Positions 25,311 to 64,000 of a stretch of DNA of 64,000 nt are shown here, piece by piece. The position numbers and the translations under genes were made by a program. Numbering within the stretch: position 1 is the first letter of the stretch; each line of letters opens with the position of its first letter. The DNA lies in assembly GCA_040954595.2 (NCBI GenBank), contig CM082577.2, positions 16,809,903-16,873,902 of the forward strand, in the 5' to 3' direction. The stretch comes from Balanoglossus misakiensis (Eukaryota; Animalia; Hemichordata). A model generated the notes under the pieces. The model worked only from the letters and a program-made list of their open reading frames with translations. It made no database searches and was not told where the DNA came from.

Positions 25311-26565
25311 CCACGAAATTCTTTTTACCAGCACCAAACGGCAAACTGGCAACATCGTATTTCTTTCATGCCAGCAACGCGTTATCTCTAAAATTGTAAC
25401 AACGTCACAATGTACTAGACAAAGAGGCGTCCCCCCATCCCAATTGCGCAGTTGAAGTACGTGCGTGTTGAGAGAGAGAGACGTGAACAGAAAGGGGTTG
25501 GAGACTGACTTGAACACGGACGACGAGAGTTGTTTAGCGTGTCGAACGCTGCTCTACGAAGCTCGTAGTTACCTACTGACAGGGACATTTGCGCTGGAAC
25601 GGACTGGGTTCCTCCAGATTGCCGCACGCCGGCGGGTATGAAAGTGTAGGCTAAGACGTCGATCCACCGGCCGGCTGCACTGTTCCCAACATTACCAGCT
25701 CCACGCCACTTTGAGCTGCACCGCGGTCGGATATCCCACCCCGGCTGCCGGACAGCATATGAAGGTGTCTGAGGCCTTTTCTAGTCAAAACTTTGGGGTT
25801 TTCGGAATGGGAAATAGCGGAACAAGAACATGGATATATACTAAATCATGAACGCCAAACAAACACGTTGAAAAAGCCAGATCTGAAAAATTCATGTGGC
25901 GTCCGCCGCTGGGCGCATTGACGCGTCAACGTTTTTTTCAAACAACGTAACCTGTCACGATTGCTGCCACAAACAACAAGTTCATGCGTACGTCGAGAAA
26001 GTTCTCAAGCGGCCGGGTGATCGCGGCAAGGTTAGCGGCAGCCTCGGACGCCCGAATTTGCCACAAAACTATCAGTCCACACAGCAATGCCGTTCAAACT
26101 CTTCCGTCGTATTTATTTCAACACAAATTCAGAATACAACACGACAGTTTGGTACGTCGTCTCTATCCTACACTGCTAATTCTCATCTCAATCTCTAAAA
26201 AAGTTCAACAGACGGGATACACTGCAACCCGCGGCACTAGGAACGGCAAAATTCACGTCTCTGCTTCACAGGAATCTACCGACCTGAAGTGGGAGGAACC
26301 CAGTCCGTTCAAGTACAAATGTCCCGGTAAGAAGGTAACTACGAGCTTCCTAGAGCAGCGTTCGAATCGACACGTCTCTCTCAACACGCACGTACTTCAA
26401 CTGCGCAATAGGGATGGGGGGGGCGCCTATTTGTCTACTAAATTGTGACGTTGTTACAATTTTAGAGATAACGTGTCGGGCCCCCTCAAAGAAAGCCGGT
26501 GGCCCCCTCAAAGAAAGCCGGTGTTGCTAGTTTGGCATTTGTTGCTAGTATTCTGAATGTTGTAG
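25311..26565. mobile_element. MITE/foldback-like element with long (about 230-260 bp) imperfect inverted repeats, flanked by TA
   Basis: 25311-25575 is the reverse complement of about 26333-26565 (gttatctctaaaattgtaacaacgtcacaat vs attgtgacgttgttacaattttagagataac; gttgaagtacgtgcgtgttgagagaga vs tctctcaacacgcacgtacttcaac). TA is at 25309-25310 and 26566-26567. The right arm has a 22-bp tandem duplication at 26479-26522. No coding capacity is evident. Confidence 0.8.
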
Positions 26566-27932
26566 TATTACTCAGGGTATCACTAATGCCAGGGAGGTCC
26601 GTCTGCGTCTATTTGGTCACCAGCATGGCACACGTCCTGTAATTATAATTGCTGTTTTGAGTGCGTCTTTACCTAATTTGAATATCCTGATCAGGTTGTT
26701 GGCCTTGCCCTAGTTGTCTCAAAATGTACATTGATACAAACAATTGCAACATATTAGTCAATACCCTGCCAACTTACGCCAAGTGTACATGTTGTTATGG
26801 AAGTTTATTTTTAGAACCGCTTGCGTTCTGCATAGGTCACAACACAAAACTTTGAAGCCCGTCAGCTAGCCCTGCATAGCGTATGTAAAGCTACTGAGAC
26901 AGGGGAAATATTAGTAAGGTTGACAACTGACTTGCTCGCTATCAAGATTTAGAAGGAATTTATTTGCTTAGTGAGGCCAGGACATTAATTGCCCCCACCC
27001 AAGCAAAATCCACGTGGGTGGAGCTCATTATCACACATAGACATTGCTACAACTATTGTTCACATCAGGGTGATAATCACCTCCCCATTAGCCCTTCTTG
27101 CCGTAACACCTGCCCCAAATTGCTGTAATGGAGCACACATTCTTTTGTTTCAAACTACGGGAACCTTTGTAGTTGCCGTAAACCATGGAGGTACTAGAGA
27201 GAAGGAGCGAGGACGGATTTAAGCGGATTAAATCCCTTTCTTCTGAAGTGTGATAAGCTTCTTAAGTCTTTGTGTTTCTGTGTCGATAGCGTCCTTTGAA
27301 CCCACTGTGTGTTGCCGTCGATTTTACAGTTAGGTTTGCAAGATCTACGGGGTAATATTTCTATGATATTAAAAACGTTATGCGCACATCGCGGACGAGG
27401 GTACTACATATGCGCGGTGACTTTTAAAACATCCAGGGGTCACAGTTTGCGCGTCACCACTACCGGAAGCGTGTCAAGCGGACGTCTGTGAAGGTTTGTA
27501 GCGTTATTTCTCTTGTTTGTACAACCAAAAAGTATGATTTTGAAATGAATATTTTGGGTTTTCCTCAAATTTCCGCAAAAAACAACAAATTCATAGGTTT
27601 TATTTGAAAACCAATCTTCCCGATGCAAGCTATTTTGTTAGTGTGGGATGGTGTGGGATGCCCGATATTCACCATTGTAATTGCCAGTGTAGAGACGTTC
27701 GGCACAGCATTTTGGTCAGGTTTGTCGTGAAAATCATCTCTCAAGGCTGTCCATATAGCATACCACTATGTTTTGGGGGTTTAATTTTTTTTATATGAGA
27801 TAACATGTAGTAACTTCTAGAAAAGGCGAGATTTCATGTTCAGGTCTTTGTTCGTGAACATGTTACGTAAACTGTTCTGGTTGGTACCCATTGTTGTGTA
27901 TTGTCCACAGGCATTGTTACCTCCCGATCCCG

Positions 27933-27958
27933 CATGGAGGTACTAGAGAGACCTCCAT
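27933..27958. other. Internal partial TIR copy forming a small hairpin upstream of the transposase
   Basis: CATGGAGGTACTAGAGAGA (first 19 bp of the TIR) runs directly into ACCTCCAT, the reverse complement of ATGGAGGT. Confidence 0.85.
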
Positions 27959-28149
27959 CGTCTGACTTCAAGGGTTATTATTATTGTTAGCTTCTAATCA
28001 AAGAGCAATCGAAGCATAGTTATTTTTAATATAATAGAATAAACAAGATATGACAAAATTGCTATGTGACAGGAGAACAGTTTCGTATTGTATCGTATGA
28101 AATATGGAGTTTAATTAAGAGAGTATGGTTATTTTTTCCTCCACAGAAA

Positions 28150-31100
28150 ATGGAACATCACAAAGCAAACCTTGAGTGTTTGTGTAGATTGTGTGGTGCC
28201 GAAAAAGCCATACGACGTAACAACCTTCCTATAAAGAAAGAAGCGCATTCCATCACAATAAAGAGGGCATTGTCTATAGATGTCCTTGATGAAAATGGGG
28301 AAATATTCCCACCTTTTATATGTATGCCGTGTTCGTTAAAATTAAACCGGTGGAAAGAGAAGGTGCGTCGGAATAAATCTAAGGATTATCCAATTAACAT
28401 CAACCCTACCCCATTTGTGGAGCACACAAGCAGTTGTAGTTTGTGTACAAGTGACGGAAGTGACCAAGAACCAACACTCATATCTGTGATTGCTGACAAG
28501 GCAGACGAATATGGTTACATCAAGGTTGTTGGTGAACAGTCAAACAGTATTTGCTGTTTGAAGATTTGTAATCACACCAAGAAGATCTCCATCAGCATTG
28601 AAGTGCAAGAATCCGGGGTATGGACTGTGGGAGTGTTTGGAAGAGCAGCAAATGCCTCCCCAGTGTTTACTGGCATTCCTACAAGAATTGATGCGGAGTC
28701 CTGCTGTCATCTCTTCAAATTGTTGGAAACAACAGTCCCGTGCCCCGGAAACGTTGGCTTCAACGAGTTATGTCGGCTGAGATCACCCCACCAAAACTGT
28801 GTACTTTTTAACAAAGACAAAGATGTAATTGCAAATGAAGAAGATGGGCCATGCTGCAAGACAATAAGACACATTAAATGTGAACTTTTGTCTCCAGACA
28901 GTACATCACGGTGTACTGTTTGCTCTGTGTATCGCAACAATTTGAATGCATTAACAAAGAGGGAAATCAAAAAGAAATCGTCAGCTGGTCCTTCGGACAA
29001 GTACTCCTGCATCAGAAATGATGCATTGAGCCGGTCCACACTTGAACAGAAGACGAGAGACCTCCAAGGAGAGAAGCGAGCTTTGAAGAGAAGAGTACGT
29101 GATTTGAAAAGTCGCTTACGTAATGTGATCGAAGAAAAGGGTGAGGTTCTGAATGATGATCTCACGAAATCATTTTCAGCGATCATGGAAGAAAAGAATG
29201 AAGAGATTCTTTCAACATATCCACCAGGGAGCCCACACCATTTATTTTGGCAGCAGCAAAGGGAAGCCTTGTCGAGATCGAGTTGTCAAAGAAGATGGCA
29301 CCCTTTAATGGTTAAATGGTGTATTGCGCTGCATTCCAAATCACCAGCAGCATATCGATTTCTTCGAAAGACCAAAACTCTAGCCCTGCCATGTGAGACT
29401 ACTCTGACTATACCCGCATCACTTCATCCACTGAAGGAGTGATCACAGAAATCATCGAGAATATCGTGGACACAGCCGATAATATACCTGAATACCAAAG
29501 AAACGTGTCCCTGGTGTTTGATGAGATCAGGATAAAGAGTGGACTTGTGTACAAGAAGGACACAGGAAATCTTCTTGGTTTCTGTAAACTTGGAAATATC
29601 AATGACGAGATCATGAAGTTTGTTGAGAAGTTAAAGGAGGCTGGTGAGGATGATGACATGTATCAAGGTGATGATGGTGGCCCATTGGCCACTCATGTTC
29701 TAACCTTTATGGTTAGAGGTTTGTGTTCCCCACTTCATGAAGTTTTTGCCTGGTTTCCCTGTTGTGGCTTCAACAGCCAACAACTGTACTGGGCAGTGTG
29801 GGATGCCGTTGCAGTGCTGGAATGGGCCAATTTTAAGGTCAGGGCATTTGTCTCCGATGGAGCCTCACCAAACAGGAAGTTTTACAGACTTCACGAGAAT
29901 GGTGATGGTATAATTACACACTGCACTGAAAATCCGTACGACAAATCTCGTCTGATCTATTTCATATGTGATGTGCCACATTTGATCAAAACGACACGAA
30001 ACAACTGGGAAAATTCGGGATGGCACAACAGAACAAGACATCTTGAAGTAAGTATTCTTTAAAACATGGATAATTATTGCTTGTGTCAAATAATTTGGAT
30101 GTGAGGGAGATTAGTATTTATTCATGCGAATGATATAAATGAGCATCATTACAATATTAAAATTTAATGATGAGGAGTCGTTATCTATTGTGAATCAAAT
30201 ACGTCGGAGCGGTCACTGTATAGCGTGTGTATGATTTACATTAAAACTGACAAAGTTCACTGTGTCAACTTTACTTTTCAATTTCACTATCATTTTTTCA
30301 CTCAATGTGGTGGACTCACTGCATATGTGTTGTGTGTCTTTCATCAACAATTGTACATGTACTAATTATCTTTTTTTATTGTCAGTACCAAGGACAACAA
30401 ATCACCTGGGTCCAACTTGCCAACCTGGTTGAAGACGAAATTGGAAGTGGTACCACTGCACCCCTTCGAAAATTACCCCGTATTACCTATGAACACGTCC
30501 ATTTGACACCTTCACTCAGGATGCGGGTGAAGCTTGCAGCTCAGGTAATTTTGTCACATATATTCTATGAAAGACAGCATAAATTACCTATAAAAGCATT
30601 TCTGGTACATATTTTTCTACTCTCACAACAAAGCCTTCAGAGAAGTCTTCAACTTTCATCGTGTAGAAGTAAACAAATAATGTATGTGTTAATTGTAGAT
30701 GGGTCAGAATAGCAGTGATATTTACAATGTACATGTAGGCTATTGTTAAAAAAAGGTATGAATCATATAGCCTATTTTATTTTTAAATTGTTTTATTTCA
30801 TATTGGGGAAAAATTACAGGTCTTGAGTAGCAGCGTGGCAAAAGCACTGGAATCAAATGGCCGACAAGATACTAAATCAACAGAGAAGTTTATTTCAATG
30901 ATAGACCAGTTTTTTGATTGTCTAAATGTATCAAGATTAGGCCAGGGTCAGCGGTCCAGGAAACCTTGTTTGGAACCATACCGTGATGTCGAAGACTGGC
31001 GCTTTGAGGTGAGTTTAACCTTTCTACAACCATGGCTGGTCCCAAATCCATTGTTTTCATGGTAAAGTTGGACTTCCACACAGGGAACAGGGGCGAAATT

Positions 31101-32090
31101 GATAAAATGCTTTTGCAGATATAATTACGTGTTGTTCAAGTTAATCTGTAATCTCATTAATATTTATGGTTTCAGCATTTTCATTTGTATGTTGAAATTA
31201 ATATTATTAAAGTTTAACAATCTCAAAAATGTGCAAGTATCTTTAGCCAATCTAACAAATTTAACTTGGGCAAAAAGATAACTAAACTATTTGATTACCC
31301 ATTGCAATTTTTTTTCAAGGGTTTATATTTATTTTCTGTTAGATATTATTTTGGTCTCAACCTTCATTTCTCATTTATAGTGTTACAATCATAATAAGTA
31401 TTCAATATTGATTTGCAGTGGCTGGAGAAAGAATTTTTAGGATTCCTGAATGAGTGGGAAGAAGAGTGCATGGCGAGGGTAAACATCTCTCCAGTTGAAA
31501 GACGTAAGATGTGCCTTAGCAGAGAGACTCTAGAAGGCTACAGAATAACAGGTCTGTTTCTTTTTTTACTATTACTATATGGTTATTCACAAGACATGGC
31601 CAATACTTCTCGTACAATCCCATTGCATGCACTAACATATGGACAATTATACTGCATTTATCAAATCTTAAAGCTGCTTTCCCTTTTATTTAGTAAAAAA
31701 GATTAGCCTCAGTCAAGAGCATTTTGCATAAATGACAGTTTGACTTATCAAACTCCAGTTGTTGCCAATGAAGTGAATAACAAGTCTTGCTTCCTTTTTT
31801 CAGTGAAGTCTTTCGTGGCTCTGGGCAAGGAGTTGCTGACTATTGATGGTGTCAACTACCTATTGAGCGAAAAGCTGTCACAAGACCCCCTTGAGGAATA
31901 TTTCGGTCGGCAGCGTGGTTGTGTTGGCCGAAACGACAACCCAACATTTGCAGAGTTTACAAGAAATGCACTTTCCTTGCATGTTGCCGGCACGTATTCC
32001 TCAGCGATGAATTCCCGTGGTAATTGCCAGAATCTAAATAGGGACGATGGAGCTCCATGGACACACATGTTACATCACCGGCAGCGCTAA
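28150..32090 (+). pseudogene. P-element/THAP9-type DDE transposase (about 890 aa, 5 coding exons) with RAG1-N-like zinc domain; one frameshift
   Basis: Exons 28150-30047, 30386-30544, 30820-31008, 31419-31551 and 31804-32090 are joined by GT-AG introns that keep frame. P motifs: RWHPLMVKWC..LHSKSPAAY..LR...LALP, LVFDEIRIKSGLVY (D1), VSDGASPN (D2), FICDVPHLIKTTRNN, MRVKLAAQVLS, DQFFDCLN, LSQDPLEEYFGRQR..GRNDNPT (E), RGNC. There is a frameshift near 29405 in the expected TL(R)DYT motif. Confidence 0.92.
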
Positions 32091-32223
32091 CATGATTTAC
32101 TGTATAACCCAGTGCTTGTCAGGTTAAGGTTTTAGCTTTTTACAAAATGCACTTTCTGTTCAAACAGCTTATTCCTGCAAGTGTCCCAGAGATGTCAATC
32201 ACATGAATCTTGACACAATTTTT

Positions 32224-32781
32224 AGGTCGCATTTGGTTTATATATATATACCGGGTATAAACCATGGGACATTATGGGATCGGTTGCGTCTGTATGGATG
32301 GACGGATGTATGTCTGTATGTCTGTCCACATCACAAAGTTGAAAACCACTGTGTATATCACCTTGATATTTGGTGTACAGATGCAGGCTGGGCTGTAGAT
32401 GGGAGTTTGTTCAAATGAAGTTGTCATTGCCAAAATATGCAAATTAGCTGGAAAAATATGAATTTGGTCAAAACTCAGTAACTCAAGAAGTACCGGTCAG
32501 ATTGCTTTGCAAAGTGGTGTGCATTTACTTTGTGTTCTTTTAATTAGGGAGGAACCCCCACCATACACAGCAAATTCCTGCATGAGTACATAACTGGCTA
32601 AGTTTTAAAGAGACAAGCTGTTCTATTTAGTGTATGCAGCTTATGGGTCAGTCAGTGTTTGCCCATTGATCTCTCTCTCTATGTGTGTGTGTGCATTTGT
32701 CTGTATGTTTTCTGTATATGTACTCCGGTGAAGACTTTTTCTTGTGTAATCCCTCAATGGGACCACTGTGTCCTTGAGGCG
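32224..32781 (+). mobile_element. Non-autonomous Helentron/HINE (DINE-1-like) element, copy 1, between the two convergent genes
   Basis: Starts in a T-run with AGGTC(G/C)CATT, followed by a short inverted ATGGGAC and a GTAT/GTCT microsatellite. It ends with the subterminal inverted AATGGGACC, a short tail and a T-run. It is highly similar to 58631-59210 and to the start of 60274. Confidence 0.7.
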
Positions 32782-33587
32782 TTTTTAATGTTTAACATTG
32801 GCTTCCATGAAAGATGGTAGCAATGAAGCATTTTGAGAGTATGTAAAACCTGTAAATGCAAAAACTTATTAATCTGAGTGTATAATTTTAAGTAACAAGC
32901 CAAGATCACATTAGTATTCTTGATGCACATTTTCTTGGACATTGTTTTTATTAAGATTTTTCAATTTACAATTTCAGTTCATTGCAAATGCTTTTGAGGC
33001 AATTATCTGAAACGTCTCAGGTCTCGCAATATTTTTTTATATATATATTGTGTCATTTACACTTTTGTAACAAACTGAGCTATTTACTGTACCATTTTTG
33101 AGACAATTATTCTTGCCAACCTGTCCAGTGAGTCTTGCCAAGGTGTGTTGTCTTTATTTATATTTGTTCACACTGTCCAGAAGGACAGTATATGAAACAG
33201 TTTGAATTGATGAACAAATCCATACTTAATCCGCACCTTCAACAGTTAAAAGAGAAATTGCACCAATAAGTGTATGACACAAACAAGTCACGACTTCATG
33301 GTGTATAATTTATAATACATGTTGTTTATTTCTGAACATTTCCAAACTGTCAAGCTGCCACAAACAGAATAAGCATGGTACATATGCATAAAGGTGGACT
33401 GAAAGAAAAGGTAACTGCACTGATTCCCAGTTAAAGTACTTGTAAATTAGCAAAACATTAAATTCTTATGCAGGGGAACTTGAACAGACATCTCAGTACA
33501 GAACTTTATTGTGAAATTTTTACTGAAAATGATAAGATTTACACAAAGTCAACTTTCCATGGACACAGCTTTTACTGCTCATTACCT

Positions 33588-35302
33588 TTATTTACAAAGT
33601 TTCTTCCTCAAACTTTTCTCTCCTTTTTGTGACATATTTTTATCTTTTTTCTTGCGTAAGTACATCAATATGTTCACAAAGGAACGGCAACGTATCTCTA
33701 CATACATTTCAAGTACCCTTAGGTACAGGGAACCACCTAAATCATGGTCAAGATCTTGCGATATAATATGCCAACCACTTACTACAGAGGGCGACTTCTG
33801 AAGTGCCTCTAAAATTGCCAACTTAAGGTTGCTGTCTCGGTAAGCTCCAACATTCTTTACTGAAAGAAAACTCCTTGTAACCATCTCTACTCTCCTCAGA
33901 AAAAGATAGAAATCATCACTTACGAGAAACAATCCTCCCCTGTTTACTGCATCAACCCACTTTTTGGTGTACGTCAAAAATGAATACCGTAGGTCACTCT
34001 GTTGTGGATTTAATTCCCATTTACTCAGGAAAGCTAAACAAGCTGCTGCAGATGTATTGCTGGGGAATCTGCTGTAAAAACGTTTCAATTTGTGAGGAAT
34101 AAACCCTGCTACATAGCGCAACACCTGTTCCTCGCCTTTAGTTAGCTGTACATCATCCTGTTTGTTCACATTGGTACAGTCGACGCCATTACATTTTCCC
34201 TGAACCAATAGTTTTACAAACTCACTCACTACAAACTGGACAATGAAGGACAATACTCTACTTGAGACATTCATATTTGTACATGTGAGAAAATCAGCAA
34301 AGTAATTGTCAATAGTATTGTTCAATCTCAGACGATGGAATAAACTGCAGACACCTTCGAGAGACCTTGATGAAATATCTTCTATTGAAACACATGGCCA
34401 AACTTCCCTGATGACTTTGCATGACAATTCCTCCACACTGGGACATGGTGACTGCAGGAGACTAAACACTGGTTCCATTTCGGCTCCAAGTTGTCTGTTC
34501 AGTCGTAGCTTCCCACTTCTTTTAATGTTGTCAACAGCAACCGACATTAGCTGGAGGCTACACTGCAGCGCCATATCAATGGTATATGATGATGTACATG
34601 TTACTGTAAATAATAGAGACATACAAAGACATGTGGAGTTAGATACATATTTTAAAGTCAAAATGTATGCTAAAAAGTAAAAACCAGCTCTTCTTACCTC
34701 CATGCCAACAAAAACATATGCAATGTAATTTTCTGGCAAATTTGACAAGTAAAAAATATGTATTTTGGGGATTGCTGTATCCATGGAGATATGTTTGTAA
34801 TTTTCAAAACAAATAAAATGACTGAATTATCAACACATACCTTTTATCTTCTGCACATTTCTTTTTTTCTCCGGGGCATTCCTAGAATTCCTTGGTGCAT
34901 CATTTATACTACTGAATTCCTTACCTGTGGACAAAAAAAAAAAAAAATTGCACATAAACGCTTAACAATAAGTATTTGAAATAAAATGACCATCATAATC
35001 AAAGGATCGACGAACTAACACCAACCACACTAAAGGACACCGGAAAATGTAGTTTGAAACTCACCTAAACATTTAGGGCAGTACCACTTGCCTTCCGGAA
35101 TACTCTCACTTGAGACGCCAACACAAACATAGTGGTACCATTCCATGCTACAACTGCTATTGTCGCATGCGATCATCTCGTCAGTTTCTGGCCCTTCGCA
35201 GACACAAAAGGTTTGCGTAGATAATAATACAGAATGCTCTTCGATCGACGCTAAGTTTTCAGACTGATCGAAATCTCCAAGATTTTCAATGTGTGGATCC
35301 AT
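33588..35302 (-). CDS. Second gene of the P element: N-terminal ING-type PHD finger plus P-transposase C-terminal-domain-like region (445 aa, 3 exons, intact)
   Basis: Exons 35302-35065, 34924-34841 and 34603-33588 have phase-1 GT-AG introns (TTAG|gtgagt, ccacag|G, AAAG|gtatgt, ttacag|T) and total 1338 bp with no stop. The PHD is FCVCEGPETDEMIACDNSSCSMEWYHYVCVGV...GKWYCPKC. The C-terminal half has EEQVLRYVAGFI..KL, W.DAVNRGGLFLVSDDFY.F...E and YVEIR. Confidence 0.85.
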
Positions 35303-35662
35303 GTTTTCGCAAAGGATTTGTAATCATGGAGACGCGACGCCAGCTATAATTTGTATATCTACGCATGCGCTCAGCTTGTACGATTGTTCCCGAAGTACAC
35401 CGAATTCTCCCGAACGCCTATCAGTAGATAAGAGGATTAGGGCCGTAATGTTTATCTGCAAACAGATAAAAACGCACATGGGGTTCGAAGGAAACAATAG
35501 CGTCCTCGCTCCTTCTCTCTAGTACCTCCATGCGTAAACTAAGACAAAAAACATCAATTAACCAACAAAAGAGGTGTTGCCGTAACATCTCTGCTACAAC
35601 ACTGCTACAACTAGTGCGGGAACTTTCCCGTACAGTTTAGTTGTTGTACGGTGTTGGGACTG

Positions 35663-38600
35663 TAGTCTTTCGTGGGTATGGACTATCCAGTGTGCTGTTA
35701 AGTTCCCATTTCCGGTGAAACGTTTACCACACATTTTGCACTCATATAGTCTTTCATTGGTATGGACTCTCAAATGTGCTTTTAAGTTCCCATTTCGGGT
35801 GAAACGTTTACCACATATTTTGCACTCATGTAGTCTTTTTGTGGTATGGACTCTCATGTGTGCTGTTAAGTTCCCATTTCGGGTGAAACGTTTAAGACAT
35901 ATTTTGCACTCATATAGTCTTTCGTGGGTATGGACTCTCAAGTGTGCTGTTAAGTTCCCATTTCGGGTGAAACATTTACCACATATTTTGCACTCATATA
36001 GTCTTTCATTGGTATGGACTCTCATGTGTGCTGTTAAGTTCCCATTTAGGGTGAAACGTTTACCACATATTTTGCACTCATATGATCTTTCGTGGGTATG
36101 GACTCTCAAGTGTACTGTTAAGTTCCCATTTAGGGTGAAACGTTTACCACACATTTTGCATTCAAAAGGTTTTTCATTGGTATGGACTCTCAAGTGTGCT
36201 GTTAAGTTTCCATTTCGGGTGAAACGTTTACCACATATTTTGCACTCATATAGTCTTTCATTGGTATGGACTCTCAAGTGTGCTGTTAAGTTCCCATTTC
36301 GGGTGAAACGTTTACCACATATTTTGCACTCATATAGTCTTTCATTGGTATGGACTCTCATGTGTGCTGTTAAGTTCCCATTTAGGGTGAAACGTTTACC
36401 ACATATTTTGCACTCATGTAGTCTTTCATTGGTATGGACTCTCATGTGTGCTGTTAAGTTCCCATTTCGGGTGAAACGTTTACCACATATTTTGCACTCA
36501 TATAGTCTTTCATTGGTATGGACTCTCATGTGTGCTGTTAAGTTCCCATTTAGGGTGAAACATTTACCACATATTTTGCACTCATATAGTCTTTCGTGGG
36601 TATGGACTCTCAAGTGTGCTGTTAAGTTCCCATTTCGGGTGAAACGTTTACCACATATTTTGCACTCATATATTCTTTCGTGGGTATGGACTATCCAGTG
36701 TGCTATTAAGTTCCCATTTAGGGTGAAACGTTTACCACATATTTTGCACTCATATGGTCTTTCGTGGGTATGGACTCTCAAGTGTGCTGTTAAGTTCCCA
36801 TTTCGGTTGAAACGTTTACCACATATTTTGCACTCATATAGTCTTTCATGGGTATGGACTCTCAAGTGTGCTTTTAAGTTCCCATTTAGGGTGAAACGTT
36901 TACCACATATTTTGCACTCATATAGTCTTTCATTGGTATGGACTCTCATGTGTGCTGTTAAGTTCCCATTTAGGGTGAAACGTTTACCACATATTTTGCA
37001 CTCATATAGTCTTTCATTGGTATGGACTCTCAAGTGTGCTGTTAAGTTCCCATTTCCGGTGAAATGTTTACCACATATTTTGCACTCATATTGTCTTTCA
37101 TGGGTATGGACTCTCAATTGTGCTGTTAAGTTCCCATTTAGGGTGAAACGTTTACCACATATTTTGCACTCATATAGTCTTTCGTGGGTATTGACTCTCA
37201 ATTGTGCTGTTAAGTTCCCATTTAGGGTGAAACGTTTACCACATATTTTGCACTCATATAGTCTTTCATTGGTATGGACTCTCAAGTGTGCTGTTAAGTT
37301 CCCATTTCCGGTGAAATGTTTACCACATATTTTGCACTCATATTGTCTTTCATGGGTATGGACTCTCAATTGTGCTGTTAAGTTCCCATTTAGGGTGAAA
37401 CGTTTACCACATATTTTGCACTCATATAGTCTTTCGTGGGTATTGACTCTCAAGTGTGCTGTTAAGTTCCCATTTCCGGTGAAATGTTTACCACATATTT
37501 TGCACTCATATTGTCTTTCATGGGTATGGACTCTCAAGTGTGCTGTTAAGTTCCCATTTCCGGTGAATTGTTTACCACATATTTTGCACTCATATAGTCT
37601 TTCATGGGTATGGACTCTCAAGTGTGCTGTTAAGTTCCCATTTCCGGTGAATTGTTTACCACATATTTTGCACTCATATAGTCTTTCATGGGTATGGACT
37701 CTCAAGTGTGCTGTTAAGTTCCCATTTCCGGTGAATTGTTTACCACATATTTTGCACTCATATTGTCTTTCATGGGTATGGACTCTCAATTGTGCTGTTA
37801 AGTTCCCATTTAGGGTGAAACGTTTACCACATATTTTGCACTCATATTGTCTTTCATGGGTATGGACTCTCAAGTGTGCTGTTAAGTTCCCATTTAGGGT
37901 GAAATGTTTACCACATATTTTGCACTCATATAGTCTTTTGTGGGTATTGACTCTCAAGTGTGCTGTTAAGTTCCCATTTCCGTTGAAATGTTTACCACAT
38001 ATTTTGCACTCATGTAGTCTTTCATTGGTATGGACTCTCATGTGTGCTGTTAAGTTCCCATTTCGGGTGAAACGTTTAAGACATATTTTGCACTCATATA
38101 GTCTTTCATTGGTATGGACTCTCATGTGTGCTGTTAAGTTCCCATTTCGGGTGAAATGTTTACCACATATTTTGCACTCATATAGTCTTTCGTGGGTATG
38201 GACTATCAAGTGTGCTGTTAAGTTCCCATTTAGGGTGAAACGTTTACCACATATTTTGCACTCATATGGTCCTTCGTGGGTATGGACTCTCATGTGTGCT
38301 GTTAAGTTCCCATTTCGGGTGAAATGTTTACCACATATTTTGCACTCATATGGTCCTTCGTGGGTATGGACTCTCATGTGTGCTGTTAAGTTCCCATTTC
38401 GGGTGAAATGTTTACCACATATTTTGCACTCATATAGTCTTTCATTGGTATGGACTCTCATGTGTGCTGTTAAGTTCCCATTTCGGGTGAAACGTTTACC
38501 ACATATTTTGCACTCATGTAGTCTTTCGTGGGTATGGACTATCCAGTGTGCTCTTAAGTTCCCATTTAGGGTGAAACATTTACCACATATTTTGCACTCA

Positions 38601-41600
38601 TATAGTCTTTCGTGGGTATGGACTCTCAAGTGTGCTGTTAAGTTCCCATTTCGGGTGAAACGTTTACCACATATTTTGCACTCATATAGTCTTTCGTGGG
38701 TATGGACTATCCAGTGTGCTATTAAGTTCCCATTTAGGGTGAAACGTTTACCACATATTTTGCACTCATATGGTCTTTCGTGGGTATGGACTCTCAAGTG
38801 TGCTGTTAAGTTCCCATTTCGGGTGAAACGTTTACCACATATTTTGCACTCATATAGTCTTTCATGGGTATGGACTCTCAAGTGTGCTTTTAAGTTCCCA
38901 TTCTCGCCAAAACATTTACCACATATTTTGCACTCATATGATCTTTCGTGGGTATGGACTCTCAAGTGTGCTGTTAAGTTCCCATTTAGGGTGAAACGTT
39001 TACCACACATTTTGCACTCATATAGTCTTTCATTGGTATGGACTCTCAAATGTGCTTTTAAGTTCCCATTTCGGGTGAAACGTTTACCACATATTTTGCA
39101 CTCATATAGTCTTTCATTGGTATGGACTCTCAAATGTGCTTTTAAGTTCCCATTTCGGGTGAAACGTTTACCACATATTTTGCACTCATATAGTCTTTCA
39201 TTGGTATGGACTCTCATGTGTGCTGTTAAGTTCCCATTTTGGGTGAAACGTTTACCACATATTTTGCACTCATGTAGTCTTTCATTGGTATGTACTCTCA
39301 TGTGTGCTGTTAAGTTCCCATTTAGGGTGAAACGTTTACCACATATTTTGCACTCATATAGTCTTTCATTGGTATGGACTCTCATGTGTGCTGTTAAGTT
39401 CCCATTTAGGGTGAAACGTTTACCACATATTTTGTACTCATATAGTCTTTCGGGGGTATGGACTCTCAAGTGTGCTGTTAAGTTCCTATTTCGGGTGAAA
39501 CATTTACCACATATTTTGCACTCATATAGTCTTTCATTGGTATGGACTCTCAAGTGTGCTGTTAAGTTCCCATTTCGGGTGAAACGTTTACCACATATTT
39601 TGCACTCATATAGTCTTTCATTGGTATGGACTCTCATGTGTGCTGTTAAGTTCCCATTTAGGGTGAAACGTTTACCACATATTTTGCACTCATGTAGTCT
39701 TTCATTGGTATGGACTCTCATGTGTGCTGTTAAGTTCCCATTTCGGGTGAAACGTTTACCACATATTTTGCACTCATATAGTCTTTCATTGGTATGGACT
39801 CTCATGTGTGCTGTTAAGTTCCCATTTAGGGTGAAACATTTACCACATATTTTGCACTCATATAGTCTTTCGTGGGTATGGACTCTCAAGTGTGCTGTTA
39901 AGTTCCCATTTCGGGTGAAACGTTTACCACATATTTTGCACTCATATATTCTTTCGTGGGTATGGACTATCCAGTGTGCTATTAAGTTCCCATTTAGGGT
40001 GAAACGTTTACCACATATTTTGCACTCATATGGTCTTTCGTGGGTATGGACTCTCAAGTGTGCTGTTAAGTTCCCATTTCGGGTGAAACGTTTACCACAT
40101 ATTTTGCACTCATATAGTCTTTCATGGGTATGGACTCTCAAGTGTGCTTTTAAGTTCCCATTAAGGGTGAAACATTTACCACATATTTTTCACTTATATA
40201 GTCTTTCGTGGGTATGGACTCTCATGTGTGCTGTTAAGTTCCCATTTCGGGTGAAATGTTTACCACATATTTTGCACTCATATAGTCTTTCATTGGTATG
40301 GACTCTCAAGTGTGCTTTTAAGTTCCCATTTCGGGTGAAACGTTTACCCCATATTTTGCACTCATATGGTCCTTCGTGGGTATGGACTATCCAGTGTGCT
40401 GTTAAGTTCCCATTTCCGGTGAAACGTTTACCGCATATTTTGCACTCATATGGTCCTTCGTGGGTATGGACTATCAAGTGTGCTGTTAAGTTCCCATTTC
40501 AGGTGAAACGTTTACCGCATATTTTGCACTCATATGGTCCTTCGTGGGTATGGACTATCCAGTGTGCTGTTAAGTTCCCATTTCCGGTGAAACGTTTACC
40601 GCATATTTTGCACTCATATGGTCCTTCGTGGGTATGGACTATCAAGTGTGCTGTTAAGTTCCCATTTCGGGTGAAACGTTTACCGCATATTTTGCACTCA
40701 TATGGTCCTTCGTGGGTATAGACTATCAAGTGTGCTGTTAAGTTCCCATTTCGGGTGAAACGTTTACCGCATATTTTGCACTCATATGGTCCTTCGTGGG
40801 TATGGACTATCCAGTGTGCTGTTAAGTTCCCATTTCCGGTGAAGCGTTTACCACATATTTTGCACTCATATAGTCTTTCATTGGTATGGACTCTCATGTG
40901 TGCTGTTAAGTTCCCATTTCGGGTAAAACGTTTACCACATATTTTGCACTCATATAGTCTTTCATTGGTATGGACTCTCATGTGTGCTGTTAAGTTCCCA
41001 TTTCGGGTGAAATGTTTACCACATATTTTGCACTCATGTAGTCTTTCATTGGTATGGACTCTCATGTGTGCTGTTAAGTTCCCATTTCGGGTGAAACGTT
41101 TACCACATATTTTGCACTCATATAGTCTTTCGTGGGTATGGACTATCAAGTGTGCTGTTAAGTTCCCATTTCGGGTGAAACGTTTACCACATATTTTGCA
41201 CTCATATAGTCTTTCATTGGTATGGACTCTCAAGTGTGCTGTTAAGTTCCCATTTCGGGTGAAACGTTTACCACATATTTTGCACTCATATAGTCTTTCA
41301 TTGGTATGGACTCTCATGTGTGCTGTTAAGTTCCCATTTAGGGTGAAACGTTTACCACATATTTTGCACTCATATAGTCTTTCGTGGGTATGGACTCTCA
41401 AGTGTGCTGTTAAGTTCCCATTTCCGGTGAAACGTTTACCGCATATTTTGCACTCATATGGTCCTTCGTGGGTATGGACTATCAAGTGTGCTGTTAAGTT
41501 CCCATTTCCGGTGAAACGTTTACCGCATATTTTGCACTCATATGGTCCTTCGTGGGTATGGACTATCCAGTGTGCTGTTAAGTTCCCATTTCCGGTGAAA

Positions 41601-43598
41601 CGTTTACCGCATATTTTGCACTCATATGGTCCTTCGTGGGTATGGACTATCCAGTGTGCTGTTAAGTTCCCATTTCGGGTGAAACGTTTACCGCATATTT
41701 TGCACTCATATGGTCCTTCGTGGGTATAGACTATCAAGTGTGCTGTTAAGTTCCCATTTCGGGTGAAACGTTTACCGCATATTTTGCACTCATATGGTCC
41801 TTCGTGGGTATGGACTATCCAGTGTGCTGTTAAGTTCCCATTTCGGGTGAAGCGTTTACCACATATTTTGCACTCATATAGTCTTTCATTGGTATGGACT
41901 CTCATGTGTGCTGTTAAGTTCCCATTTCGGGTAAAACGTTTACCACATATTTTGCACTCATATAGTCTTTCATTGGTATGGACTCTCATGTGTGCTGTTA
42001 AGTTCCCATTTAGGGTGAAATGTTTACCACATATTTTGCACTCATGTAGTCTTTCATTGGTATGGACTCTCATGTGTGCTGTTAAGTTCCCATTTCGGGT
42101 GAAACGTTTACCACATATTTTGCACTCATATAGTCTTTCGTGGGTATGGACTATCAAGTGTGCTGTTAAGTTCCCATTTAGGGTGAAACGTTTACCACAT
42201 ATTTTGCACTCATATAGTCTTTCATTGGTATGGACTCTCAAGTGTGCTTTTAAGTTCCCATTTCGGGTGAAACGTTTACCACATATTTTGCACTCATATA
42301 GTCTTTCATTGGTATGGACTCTCATGTGTGCTGTTAAGTTCCCATTTAGGGTGAAACGTTTACCACATATTTTGCACTCATATAGTCTTTCGTGGGTATG
42401 GACTCTCAAGTGTGCTGTTAAGTTCCCATTTCCGGTGAAACGTTTACCGCATATTTTGCACTCATATGGTCCTTCGTGGGTATGGACTCTCAAGTGTGCT
42501 GTTAAGTTCCCATTTCCGGTGAAACGTTTACCGCATATTTTGCACTCATATGGTCCTTCGTGGGTATGGACTATCAAGTGTGCTGTTAAGTTCCCATTTC
42601 CGGTGAAACGTTTACCGCATATTTTGCACTCATATGGTCCTTCGTGGGTATGGACTATCCAGTGTGCTGTTAAGTTCCCATTTCCGGTGAAACGTTTACC
42701 GCATATTTTGCACTCATATGGTCCTTCGTGGGTATGGACTATCCAGTGTGCTGTTAAGTTCCCATTTCGGGTGAAACGTTTACCGCATATTTTGCACTCA
42801 TATGGTCCTTCGTGGGTATAGACTATCAAGTGTGCTGTTAAGTTCCCATTTCGGGTGAAACGTTTACCGCATATTTTGCACTCATATGGTCCTTCGTGGG
42901 TATGGACTATCCAGTGTGCTGTTAAGTTCCCATTTCGGGTGAAGCGTTTACCACATATTTTGCACTCATATAGTCTTTCATTGGTATGGACTCTCATGTG
43001 TGCTGTTAAGTTCCCATTTCGGGTAAAACGTTTACCACATATTTTGCACTCATATAGTCTTTCATTGGTATGGACTCTCATGTGTGCTGTTAAGTTCCCA
43101 TTTAGGGTGAAATGTTTACCACATATTTTGCACTCATGTAGTCTTTCATTGGTATGGACTCTCATGTGTGCTGTTAAGTTCCCATTTCGGGTGAAACGTT
43201 TACCACATATTTTGCACTCATATAGTCTTTCGTGGGTATGGACTATCAAGTGTGCTGTTAAGTTCCCATTTAGGGTGAAACGTTTACCACATATTTTGCA
43301 CTCATATAGTCTTTCATTGGTATGGACTCTCAAGTGTGCTTTTAAGTTCCCATTTCGGGTGAAACGTTTACCACATATTTTGCACTCATATAGTCTTTCA
43401 TTGGTATGGACTCTCATGTGTGCTGTTAAGTTCCCATTTAGGGTGAAACGTTTACCACATATTTTGCACTCATATAGTCTTTCGTGGGTATGGACTCTCA
43501 AGTGTGCTGTTAAGTTCCCATTTCCGGTGAAACGTTTACCGCATATTTTGCACTCATATGGTCCTTCGTGGGTATGGACTATCAAGTGTGCTGTTAAG
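35663..43598 (-). repeat. 84-bp C2H2 zinc-finger tandem array, upstream part (about 94 units)
   Basis: Same unit as 1-23237, resuming exactly in register after the TA duplication. Stops at about 40190 and 40500. An EGPY-linker variant is enriched in 40350-43598. The array ends abruptly at a poly-C run. Confidence 0.97.
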
Positions 43599-44116
43599 CC
43601 CCCCCCCCCCCCCCCCCCCGGAAATCCTCCACCCCTGGAAGTATTTTCTAAGCAATCCCTAGCAGACAGTGGCCTAAATACACGACACATCTTTTGCATA
43701 TGCATCACTACAATGTTGAATGAAACAAGTCATTGCAAAATCAATCAGATACAAATTGCTTCTCGGTAATGAAGATACATCGTGTACAGACCTCGCCGAC
43801 TTAGCCTGTTTTTTTTTCTTATATTTACCGTAAAGAAAGGTTTTGGTGTGATAGTCATGACAGACACTACTTGTTAGCGCTATGTCTGAATTCGCCTCAT
43901 CGACGGTAGAAACACCACTTTCCGCTTGCACGTGCTCGCTCGACTACAGTCTCGTATTTTCCGGAGAGTATGGTTGACCTTGCAACATGGCGGGCGAAGA
44001 TGTAGCAAAACTATTGGCATTTCTCTGGATACGTGTACTCTGGGCACCGTACTCCTCACGGGATCTGATTCACTCAGATCAGTACACGTCCTCTGGTGTT
44101 AATGCCACATCAGTTT
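43599..44116 (+). repeat. About 520-bp dispersed direct repeat, copy 1 (starts with poly-C)
   Basis: Near-identical to 46095-46627 (gacagtggcctaaatacacg ... caacatggcgggcgaagatgta ... tgccacatcagttt). Confidence 0.9.
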
Positions 44117-58616: not shown

Positions 58617-58630
58617 GAAATGTCCTTTTT

Positions 58631-59210
58631 AGGTCCCATTTTTATAGGTATATATACCATGGGACCTTATGGGATCGGTTGCGTCTGTATGTATGTATGG
58701 ATGGATGTATGGATGTCTGTATGTCCGTCCACATCAAAAACTTGAAAACTGCTGCGTGTATCACCTTGATATTTGGTGTGCAGATGGAGGCTGGGCTGTA
58801 GATGGGAGTTTGTTCAAATGAAGGTGCCATTGCCAAAAATATGCAAATTAGCTGGAAAAATGTGAATTTGGTCAAAACTCAGTAACTCAAGAACTACTGG
58901 TCAGATTGCTTTGCAAAGTGGTGTGTATTTACTTTATTGAGTTGTTTTAATTAGGCAGGACGTTCCCTGGTGTGATTGATTTACACAGGAAATTCCTGAA
59001 TTACATAACTGGCTAAGTTTTAAATAGGCCAGCTGTTCTATTTAGTGTATGTACAGTACATATGCCATTGGCAGCTTATGGGTCAGTCAGTGCTTGCCCA
59101 TTGATCTCTCGCTATGTGTGTGTGTCTGTCTGTCTGTATATGGCCATGTACTCCGGTGTAGACTTTTTCTTGTGTAATAACTCAATGGGACCCCTGTGTC
59201 CTTGACGTGA
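58631..59210 (+). mobile_element. Non-autonomous Helentron/HINE-like element, copy 2
   Basis: tttttAGGTCCCATT...ATGGGACCT, GTAT/GGAT microsatellite, 3' AATGGGACC, tail and T-run. Collinear with 32224-32781. Confidence 0.72.
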
Positions 59211-59887
59211 TTTTTTCATTACTTTTTTGAACCAAATTCTGTTGTTTTGTTCCTATTATTCCCTGCAAAAATTTAACTTTTGGCCTCATTCCATGTGTAA
59301 TGAATTCTCCTGATCCATTTTACGGGTAGTCTCTGAAACCTTTTGCGTTCTTTATTTAATACTTCATAGATCCATTGCCTTGTCATCACATCATGACCAG
59401 GGGGTAGGTTTGTGTTACTAAGGACTCAGCTTTTGAAGGTCGAGCAATATTTTTCTATTTGAGACAGAAATATTGTGGTATTTACACACAAAATAATTTT
59501 TGTACCGTGTAAAAAAATTATATTTATATTAGACACACTTTATAACAGAGTTTAAAATTGATATGTATTATTTATTTGTTCAAATAAATATATTATCTGT
59601 GTTTACAAAGATTGAGTTGTTTTGTATTTGTAGCACACCAAAAATATACTACATCTTCCATTGACACTTGGTAATCACTATACAGTGCTCTTTGCATACA
59701 CACACTACCGGTACATACACTAGGTTTGTTGAGAGGCAGAATTTGAGCTTGGGGACCCTGTGCTGCTACATAAAAACAAAAATTGAAAAAAACAAGTGTT
59801 TATTTGTGGTACGAGCCTTTGTTATGAAACCCATCAGTTTGAACAAATTTTCGGCACTGTATGAAATTTGGACTACATGTAGTTTGT

Positions 59888-60273: not shown

Positions 60274-61180
60274 AGGTCCCATTGGTACCGGGTATGTACC
60301 ATAGGACCTTATGGGATCGGTTGCGTCTGTATGTATGTATGGATGGATGGCTGGATGGATGTACCGGTATGTCCGTCCACATCAAAAACTTGAAAACCGC
60401 TGAGCGTATGACATCGATATTTTGTGTGGAGATAAAGGCAGGGCTGTAGATGTGAGTTTGTTCAAATGAAGTTGTCATTGCCAAAAATATGCAAATTAGC
60501 TGGGAAAATGTGAAATTGGTCAAAACTCAAAAACTCGACAACCACTGGTCATATTGATTTGAAAATTTGTATGCATGTACCTTATGTCAACCTCATACAG
60601 TCCTGTATGTTTGAGCTAATATTATCGATTTCCTATTTTTTGAGCTTTTTTTGTATTTTTCCATGTTATTGGTAAAAAGTCTTTATTTCTGAAAGTGATG
60701 GGCTTACTTCTTTGAAATTTAATATGAAGCTTCCTAATGAATGTCTGAGTAACCATAGTTTTGTTCAAATTGTTGCAAAATTTGCATATTTATAATTTTG
60801 AGCTGCAATATTTGCCATTTTTGGTCAAAAATGTTTTTCTTTAAAATCGCATGCCAGATTGCTTTGCAATTTGGTAGGCATGTTCGTAGGGGTAACCTAA
60901 GTAATATGTTGTAAAAAAATGTGATATTTGCATAAATGTGTCATCGGGGAAACTTGCAATTTGTGTCAAAAATTGTTTTATCTGAAAACCTCTTGTCATA
61001 TTGCATTGAACTTTGGCAGCATGTTCCTTGTAGTGATTGAAGTAAGATATTGTACAATTTTGGTGATATTTGCATATTTGTGTTTTTGCCACTTTTGAAC
61101 AAATATTTTCTGTGAAACTGCTTGTTGGATTGCTTTGAAATTTGTTTTTTCTCTGATTGCTTTGAAATTTAGGATATAAT
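60274..61180 (+). mobile_element. HINE-like element, copy 3 (longer subfamily, 3' end not seen)
   Basis: The first 290 bp or so match copies 1 and 2, followed by internal repeats of gattgctttgaaattt(gg) and ttgcatattt. Confidence 0.6.
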
Positions 61181-63174: not shown

Positions 63175-64000
63175 TTAAAACAGGAATAGGCGACTGGTGT
63201 TGTTGGCGGCGGCCTCCAGCAACTCTTCTGCCGCAACCCCTCGCACCTGGGCTGCTTCCCGAGCCACCTCACCCAGAAAAACAGGGGAGTTGAATCGCTG
63301 ACTCCCCCGCAGGGCTAGATGTGGGGCGTCCGTCTCCAACAGGATTCGGTCCTCGTGAACTTCCCTCAGCGCTTGGGCTTGGGCTTGTCGAAGCAGGCCA
63401 CGCTGGCAGAAAAGCTGAAATAGCAGTTCTGGAATGCCTGGGTCCATCTATTTAGGGTGCGTCTGTCCCCCCCCCCCCCCTGAAGGTGTGCAGCTGGATT
63501 GGTTGGGTTGAAGGGCAGGTTTCAGACACCAACATCAGGGCCAGGGCATGTACGTCACTGGCGTGTGGATCTCTCCTCGCGCCTCTGATGTGAAGCACGA
63601 TTAGTTTGTCTTCGGGTGCCACTTCCAACAGGCGTTGGAGGGCTTCCTCCTGCTGACCCCATTTCTGGACTGGTGCGGTCCTGTCCAGGCCTATCTCGCC
63701 CATGGCCGCTACCAGGGGGTGGGTTACTAGTCCCTTAATCCGCTGCAACAGCTCCTCTGTCATTTTCTTGGCCTTTTTGGGGTGAAGCCCAACCGCAACT
63801 TTCCACCCCGGCTCCCTTAGCAGGATCTTTGGATATTCTTCGGGGTCGCAATAAATCTCCACACCCCCCACCACTTCCACTGGCACTTCCGGCTCTCGCC
63901 CTGGCGACAATTGCAACAGTTCACGGGAAGTGGTGGCTCCTTCACTTTGGGGAGCCTTGGCTCTCATGCGGTCCGGGTGAAAATGAGCGTCTATAGCCTG
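63175..64000 (-). pseudogene. TatD-family metal-dependent nuclease, intronless, two frameshifts, just upstream of the PPT and 3' LTR
   Basis: IDAHFHPDR (DxHxH, 63995-63968), VAVGLHPK, AAMGEIGLD, LIVLHIRG, IQLHTF.G, W...FQNCYFSFS (in a third frame), DRILLETDAPHL, NTSRLF. Frameshifts are at the poly-C 63467-63480 and near 63385. Confidence 0.9.

Follow-up and report, generated by a model that had tools for sequence, protein, structure and literature searches.

Introduction

In the published record, the two-zinc domain at the N-terminus of RAG1 (NZD, also CND or Chapa) is limited to RAG1, RAG1L and Chapaev. A 2015 paper states that the Chapa domain is present in no other known transposable element (PMC4411706), and a 2026 preprint names Chapaev as the only other lineage besides RAG1/RAG1L (bioRxiv 10.64898/2026.01.24.700457). 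The same preprint provides the mouse ligand numbering and the two zinc sites of the NMR structure 21WB, reports a relation between the first NZD site and the ZAD, and describes helix H2 as missing in invertebrate RAG1L and type I Chapa. Three motifs define RAG1-like N-termini (Kapitonov and Jurka, 2005; PMC1131882). The mouse domain is a monomer with two zincs that binds double-stranded DNA without RSS specificity at a Kd of 0.8-3 uM (PMC3124419).

The second system of relevance is the P superfamily. The view that THAP is the ancestral N-terminal domain of P transposases is based on Drosophila P, THAP9 and Galileo (PMC10983969, PMC3688188) and not on the core tree presented below. P elements usually create an 8-bp target-site duplication (TSD) and their transposase makes a 17-nt staggered cut (PMC10983969). 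THAP9 and Drosophila transposase without their CTD still excise and integrate in cells (10.64898/2026.08.31.747927).

Here, we describe a P-superfamily transposon in a 64,000-nucleotide stretch of Balanoglossus misakiensis DNA (the window), the first gene of which opens with an NZD. Similar to Drosophila P, THAP9 and zebrafish Pdre2, the element combines an HTH, a split RNase H domain with GTP-binding insertion and D-D-E residues, terminal inverted repeats (TIRs) starting with CAT, a short TSD and CTD motifs. Unlike these elements, it has an NZD in place of THAP and an extra middle Cys/His domain; the CTD is encoded by a gene of its own, convergent to the first and with either a PHD or a C2H2 finger, and the TSD measures 7 instead of 8 bp. 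With the NZD of RAG1/RAG1L (21WB) it shares eight ligands, the spacing of the second site, motifs 1-3 and a basic H4, yet it lacks the H2 insertion, has no RING after the domain and continues into a P core, not a Transib-type core. RAG1L and RAG2L are likewise convergent and some RAG2L carry a PHD; as gene 2 encodes no kelch protein, however, the resemblance is an analogy only. Where RAGL/ProtoRAG elements have a Transib-type core, a kelch RAG2L and a 5-bp TSD, we find a P-type core, a helical PHD gene 2 and a 7-bp TSD. Chapaev, known here by description only, differs by its CMC-type core, a TSD of 2-4 bp (10.64898/2026.08.26.747230) and often a RING.

Results

A mobile element bounded by perfect repeats

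The element is an 8,349-bp DNA transposon (27184-35532) bounded by TIRs and a TSD (Table 1). Its 32-bp TIRs and 7-bp TSD fit the P superfamily, in which TIRs start with CA(T) and TSDs range from 7 to 8 bp. Contigs from two sequencing runs of one sample were examined. In both runs the element-free joint 27176-35533 is found, the seven letters of the duplication fitting either side; the insertion target is itself a repeat, so that this joint may stem from a different target copy. A form with an internal deletion (27722-35322) reaches depths of 1632 and 4731, compared to about 29 and 53 within the genes. Because the depth of the deleted form lies far above that of the genes, tens of non-autonomous copies are suggested, depth not being equal to copy number. 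Perfect TIRs and TSD, the joint without element and the deep deleted form are all signs of mobility. In one contig, 19 bp of the left TIR are joined to 20 bp of the right TIR, a hint of the footprint that is expected from the 17-nt staggered cut of P (PMC10983969). Beyond the TIRs, the two element ends have only a few words of 9-10 bp in common.

The element also carries an internal, footprint-like copy of its TIR start, which could be an old excision footprint, and a second high-copy repeat in intron 3 (about 30760-31350). Giant tandem C2H2 arrays built of near-identical 84-bp units occupy the minus strand at 1-23500 and 35594-43729; a strict pattern counts 251 and 82 fingers in them, and about 60 bp separate the stop codon in the frame of the second array from the element. 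Long nested inverted arms of 74, 60 and 47 nt mark a stretch of 1.1 kb (25377-26476), probably another non-autonomous DNA transposon. An open frame on the minus strand (63452-64000) may encode a TatD-type nuclease.

Table 1. Coordinates of the transposon and its parts within the window.
Feature	Position	Strand	Basis or remark
Left 7-bp TSD, CGTAAAC	27177..27183	.	joint 27176-35533
Left TIR, 32 bp, starts CATGG	27184..27215	+	100% complementary to 35501-35532
Internal copy: first 19 bp of TIR, then 8 bp resembling right end	27933..27959	+	footprint-like, without TSD
Two-zinc domain (NZD/CND/Chapa), residues 1-101 of the gene 1 protein	28150..28452	+	Pfam, profile, alignment, shuffles, THAP-profile scan
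Putative ligand codons	28159 (H4), 28183, 28192, 28321, 28330 (C4 site), 28423 (H92), 28435, 28444	+	
Middle domain, no Pfam name; conserved W158, C198-x-G, R240-H241, C244, C255, C258	28477..28953	+	
Coiled coil and P-element HTH	29017..29409	+	PF12017 E 9.6e-5, 23.2 bits (cut-off 23)
Frameshift in the present copy	29400..29410	+	WHP to first Asp 224 nt (74.7 codons) vs 76-78 residues in 5 relatives
Remainder of exon 1 with the N-terminal part of RNase H, D (29520), D (29856)	29409..30047	+	PF21787 E 6.7e-19
Exon 2, GTP-binding insertion region	30386..30544	+	tblastn of relatives, GT/AG sites
Exon 3, GTP-binding insertion	30820..31008	+	PF21788 E 8.3e-6
Exon 4	31419..31551	+	
Last exon with the C-terminal part of RNase H and catalytic E (31893), then a short tail and stop; no CTD	31804..32090	+	PF21789 E 6.5e-7
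Unrelated high-copy repeat between the genes	32219..32786	.	80% copies at 58626-59214 and 60286-60587; very high depth
Gene 2 exon 3, helical domain and P-type CTD (LRYVAGFIPHKL, VNRGGLFLVSDDF)	33588..34603	-	
Gene 2 exon 2, linker	34841..34924	-	
Gene 2 exon 1, PHD finger	35065..35302	-	PF00628 E 8.1e-8
Right TIR, 32 bp	35501..35532	-	
Right 7-bp TSD	35533..35539	.	

Gene 1 encodes a P-type transposase

Gene 1, the splicing of which was derived from relatives and GT/AG sites, encodes an NZD, a middle Cys/His domain, a coiled coil, the HTH and an RNase H fold interrupted by the GTP-binding insertion. All four Pfam families of the P core (PF12017, PF21787, PF21788, PF21789) score at or above their cut-offs and the catalytic D, D and E are in place. 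A profile of 26 P-type sequences matches Drosophila transposase chain 6P5A_A (E 1.2e-18). A canonical P transposase has an N-terminal THAP and a fused CTD; since THAP is absent and the CTD is located on gene 2, the element is filed as a variant of the superfamily. Gene 1 of the present copy is broken by one frameshift (near 29405), which is also found in a contig of run X1, possibly a run of the source sample. The middle domain is common to NZD, THAP and zinc-less relatives and is a candidate for the true end-binding domain.

The N-terminal domain is a RAG1-type NZD

The ATG at 28150 opens MEHHKANLECLCRLCG...IFPPFICMPC...FVEHTSSCSLC. A sequence-only reading had recognized RAG1-like Cys/His blocks in the same order as in RAG1, without a THAP signature in gene 1, and both observations hold. 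In the profile alignment, eight putative ligands (H4, C12, C15, C58, C61, H92, C96, C99) map one to one on H102, C110, C113, C175, C178, H206, C210 and C213 of mouse. The C4 site of ZFa is composed of C12, C15, C58 and C61 and is invariant in the 26-row P-only alignment; in ZFb, H4 stands eight residues before the first Cys and H92, C96 and C99 form the H-x3-C-x2-C motif. The eight-ligand pattern occurs in 0 of 100,000 shuffles of the domain. Motif 1 of the RAG1-like N-termini (PMC1131882) is present exactly and motifs 2 and 3 with small substitutions, and residues 59-80 form a basic helix with eight K/R.

The profile comparison proposed by the earlier reading points in the same direction. In Pfam, RAG1_imp_bd is the top match of residues 1-105 (E 2.7e-4; 21.1 bits, 2.2 under the cut-off of 23.3), followed by zf-AD (E 1.1e-3; 19.6 bits, cut-off 28), while no THAP match appears up to E 1. 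Several relatives exceed the RAG1_imp_bd cut-off, and some of the proteins with the same fusion (NZD-P proteins) already bear automatic Pfam labels. The P-only profile of 26 sequences matches 21WB with E 3.5e-7 and full-length mouse RAG1 with E 5.5e-6, compared to E 1.2e-3 for the M1BP ZAD, and THAP is not among the PDB matches listed for it. Profile A1 included RING-bearing rows, and its stronger RAG1 match was set aside in favor of this P-only profile. The single domain sequence finds no match in the PDB, and a word-index search with residues 1-110 among proteins of 724-2065 aa returned 20 candidates, none significant. A THAP profile made from seven sister elements reaches at best E 12 in the six frames of the whole element (positive control 1e-28), so that no THAP exon lies hidden behind the splice-acceptor-like site before the ATG.

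The domain model (pLDDT 90.5) has helices matching H1, H3 and H4. The vertebrate helix H2 is missing, since C15 and C58 are 43 residues apart compared to 62 in mouse. 21WB is not among the matches of either fold search and may postdate those libraries. THAP structures are not among the fold matches listed either, an absence that carries no weight here, and a viral fold library gave no match.

Gene 2 carries a separate C-terminal domain

Gene 2 (35302-33588) is convergent to gene 1 and its spliced model is an open protein of 445 aa. That the CTD is detached from the transposase is a feature of the family. Among the matches listed, 114 of 119 related transposases extend over the whole C-terminal end of the core profile, with their stop a median of 22 residues farther on, and the gene-2 (CTD) profile matches none of these 119, i.e., the two are never fused. 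The sole significant PDB chain for a 23-row gene-2 profile is the C-terminal chain of Drosophila transposase (6P5A_B, E 3.4e-5); a 5-row profile did not detect the CTD. When compared with the three P-CTD consensus blocks of 10.64898/2026.08.31.747927, the C-terminal part of gene 2 shows 6/13 identities with one block (42 of 2000 shuffles being as good) and 8/13 with another (0/2000); for the third block, the 9-residue motif in gene 2 is not above chance. Pfam scores for Tnp_P_element_C are weak in three of the 14 locus homologues, with a best E of 0.0031, and neither gene 2 of the window nor any of its four named homologues gives a match. A precomputed PF22824 label, which we take to be the THAP9 C-terminal family, on two amphioxus gene-2 homologues was not reproduced when Pfam was rerun. 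The structure model of gene 2 is poor (pLDDT 56): Foldseek found no match for it, and the ESM Atlas gave generic helical matches or none. A complex prediction for the L001 core and its gene 2 product, made without alignments, scored 0.00 and carries no weight either way.

The four named homologues comprise one Ptychodera protein with a PHD, which has the same layout as gene 2 of the window, and three Branchiostoma proteins with a C2H2 finger. In metagenomes, 80 of 434 loci were kept. The first gene-2 profile (5 sequences) detects a partner in 27 of these 80, and in 15 of the 21 loci whose downstream flank is 2 kb or longer; an enlarged profile, partly built from the same loci, detects it in 30 and 18, respectively. 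In the matching loci gene 2 is always located on the strand opposite to gene 1, in L008 upstream of it. All three NZD loci with a downstream flank of at least 2 kb have gene 2, L071 repeats the layout of NZD-P and PHD, and the THAP sister L032 contains the same two genes between 32-bp TIRs with a 7-bp TSD. In B. floridae, the locus numbers of an NZD-P gene and a gene-2 homologue differ by four and the contigs that carry them are identical in length, so that the two genes are probably neighbors. Across 21 elements the identities of gene 1 and gene 2 co-vary (Mantel r 0.73; 0/5000).

NZD-bearing transposases form one group of the P superfamily

The domain search yielded 86 relatives at E up to 1e-3. 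The middle domain is present in 40 of them, the P HTH or core is reached by 19 and THAP occurs in none, while a RAG1-type core is found in five, a RING in eight and a DUF6589-type body in two. The catalytic-core search produced 348 proteins; among the 120 matches listed, 119 were classified: 25 have an NZD, two a degenerate NZD, nine a THAP and 68 are too short to call; 15 have neither domain, a class that may partly reflect incomplete gene models. NZD and THAP are never found together in these 119. Scanned viral contigs contained no relatives. The full ligand set is present in 17 of 26 NZD-P proteins, the other nine lacking ligands in the alignment, mostly of the second site; several members thus retain only the first zinc site, and some RAG1L are likewise devoid of the second. 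Among the named carriers are Apostichopus, Holothuria, Antedon, Anneissia, Patiria, Acanthaster, Strongylocentrotus, Lytechinus, Diadema and Amphiura, in addition to Branchiostoma, Hydractinia and Clytia, so that NZD-P cores span echinoderms, amphioxus and hydrozoans.

In the 71-row core tree, built without a canonical P outgroup and with a chosen outgroup that does not form one side of a branch, the NZD rows fall into a single group (29 rows, 100/100), and the THAP rows into a separate one (10 rows, 99/98). Six loci adjoin the NZD group (91/86) and contain neither NZD nor THAP in the DNA covered. In a superseded 45-row tree, P0114, a protein without NZD and with a low-complexity N-terminus, fell inside the NZD group; later core trees left out P0114 and 67 other proteins called too short. 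Judged from these sequences, NZD-P elements are a real and widespread group of the P superfamily, in which the N-terminal slot holds an NZD, a THAP or nothing. The idea that the zinc domain replaces THAP in this lineage is thus correct as to the slot, and this group-wide. A direct swap of THAP for NZD is unsupported, since the six loci next to the NZD group have neither domain; the gain may fall in a lineage already without THAP.

As a separate observation, L036, L044, L078, L020, L047 and L077 encode deep-branching P transposases without CTD, three of them with very divergent gene-2 partners.

Discussion

In this study, we propose that the element is a two-gene P transposon in which the RAG1-type NZD in the THAP slot is likely an accessory, largely sequence-independent DNA grip or regulator and not the reader of the element ends, a reading to which we assign a probability of roughly 0.68. 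A two-gene P lineage, probably already without THAP, would have gained the NZD once, from a pool in common with RAG1L and Chapaev. The gene 1 protein would pair the ends via its middle domain, coiled coil and HTH, and its GTP-binding RNase H core would cut in P fashion, staggered inside the TIR, resulting in a 7-bp TSD. The basic helix of the NZD would raise DNA affinity or handle localization. Gene 2 would supply the CTD in trans, its PHD or C2H2 finger tying the CTD to chromatin or DNA. Because P transposases without CTD stay active (10.64898/2026.08.31.747927), the gene 1 protein can plausibly cut on its own, and gene 2 would then serve to modulate or target it.

The alternative that survives best is that the NZD functionally replaces THAP, i.e., that it recognizes specific sites within the TIRs or close to them and starts the pairing of the ends. 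The THAP domain of Drosophila P contacts internal binding sites (PMC10983969), and the NZD precedes the same middle domain as THAP does, excludes THAP in the 119 listed proteins, has been kept across hydrozoans, echinoderms and amphioxus and carries a strongly basic helix. Nevertheless, we consider this role rather unlikely. The zinc-domain slot is dispensable, as neither domain is present in the 15 listed proteins and the six sister loci, the nearest sisters included; the mouse domain has no sequence specificity (PMC3124419), and beyond the TIR the two ends have only a few words in common. Given that relatives exist with neither zinc domain, recognition of the ends most likely resides in the middle domain, the HTH and the core, and the NZD is best read, by analogy with the mouse domain, as an accessory DNA grip or regulator.

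The NZD-P group contradicts the published limit of the RAG1 N-terminal domain to RAG1/RAG1L and Chapaev. A full-text literature search, with Repbase and subscription journals outside its scope, revealed no NZD-P fusion and no two-gene P element, and neither is present in the available text of PMC1131882, PMC7204232, PMC10462144 and 10.64898/2026.08.26.747230. The main text of 10.64898/2026.01.24.700457, as far as accessible, mentions neither THAP nor P elements, and the uncharacterized entries of its Supplementary Table 1 might include such proteins. The zinc domain is likely a module swapped between otherwise unrelated transposons, and its gain by a P group means that it can move between unrelated transposase superfamilies. 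Therefore, the presence of an NZD alone proves no shared ancestry of the cores. The sequence-only reading had suggested a mobile module that is also used by P elements, which is now extended to a whole family, and had linked this to the way in which RAG1 acquired its N-terminus, for which the domain phylogeny that it called for offers no support. That tree, with 97-99 columns and without vertebrate RAG1 or named Chapaev rows, has an unsupported backbone and does not settle the direction; in an AU test a single origin of the P-type NZDs is not rejected (p 0.64). Confinement of the NZD to one group of P cores makes it more likely that P received the domain than that it donated it. It is very doubtful that the split two-gene P branch, with its exchangeable N-terminal slot, acted as donor of the NZD to RAG1L, or as a relay, and that its convergent pair of transposase and PHD partner reinvented the RAG1L/RAG2L layout independently, the partner steering a RAG1-like-capped transposase to chromatin.

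The ZADs deserve attention since they provide all top matches of the domain model among solved folds (M1BP, Grauzone, Pita, ZNF276; Z 5.2-6.5), and the zf-AD score on the window sequence is close to that of RAG1_imp_bd. Together with the family members that have only the first zinc site, this could indicate a generic ZAD-like dimerization module resembling RAG1 merely by a common ZAD-related ancestor. The overlays, however, cover the first zinc site and its helices (residues about 10-77) and end at residue 77, and Foldseek matches of the model have E above 0.03. A ZAD holds one zinc and dimerizes, whereas in the window domain, as in 17 of 26 relatives, a second site (H...H-x3-C-x2-C) is predicted. 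The P-only profile favors 21WB over the ZAD by more than three orders of magnitude and all three motifs of PMC1131882 are recognizable, which makes a mere ZAD highly improbable. A one-off chimera or assembly artefact, in which a Chapaev or RAG1L fragment precedes a P transposase in a repeat-rich locus with a frameshifted copy, is refuted by the same fusion in dozens of proteins from many species and by the intact, intronless sister L001 of 910 codons, and at the locus itself by the single open frame from NZD to HTH and a single contig over 27646-29252 without difference.

The function of the RAG1 NZD is stated as undefined. P elements with an NZD, a THAP or an empty slot, intact intronless ones included, allow it to be tested in excision assays, and the split CTD gene is a natural test of the uncharacterized role of the P CTD.

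Some proteins with an NZD lie outside this transposon group. P0009, P0028, P0040, P0052, P0024, P0056 and P0073 comprise host-like proteins with two to three NZD copies as well as NZD proteins of the crustacean type, whose RAG1 core is degenerate, all possible domestications; amphioxus P0009 combines three NZD copies with the P-type middle domain. P0051 and P0082, from an oyster-associated cluster, join an NZD to a DUF6589-type body and may be Chapaev-like or represent a further transposase type.
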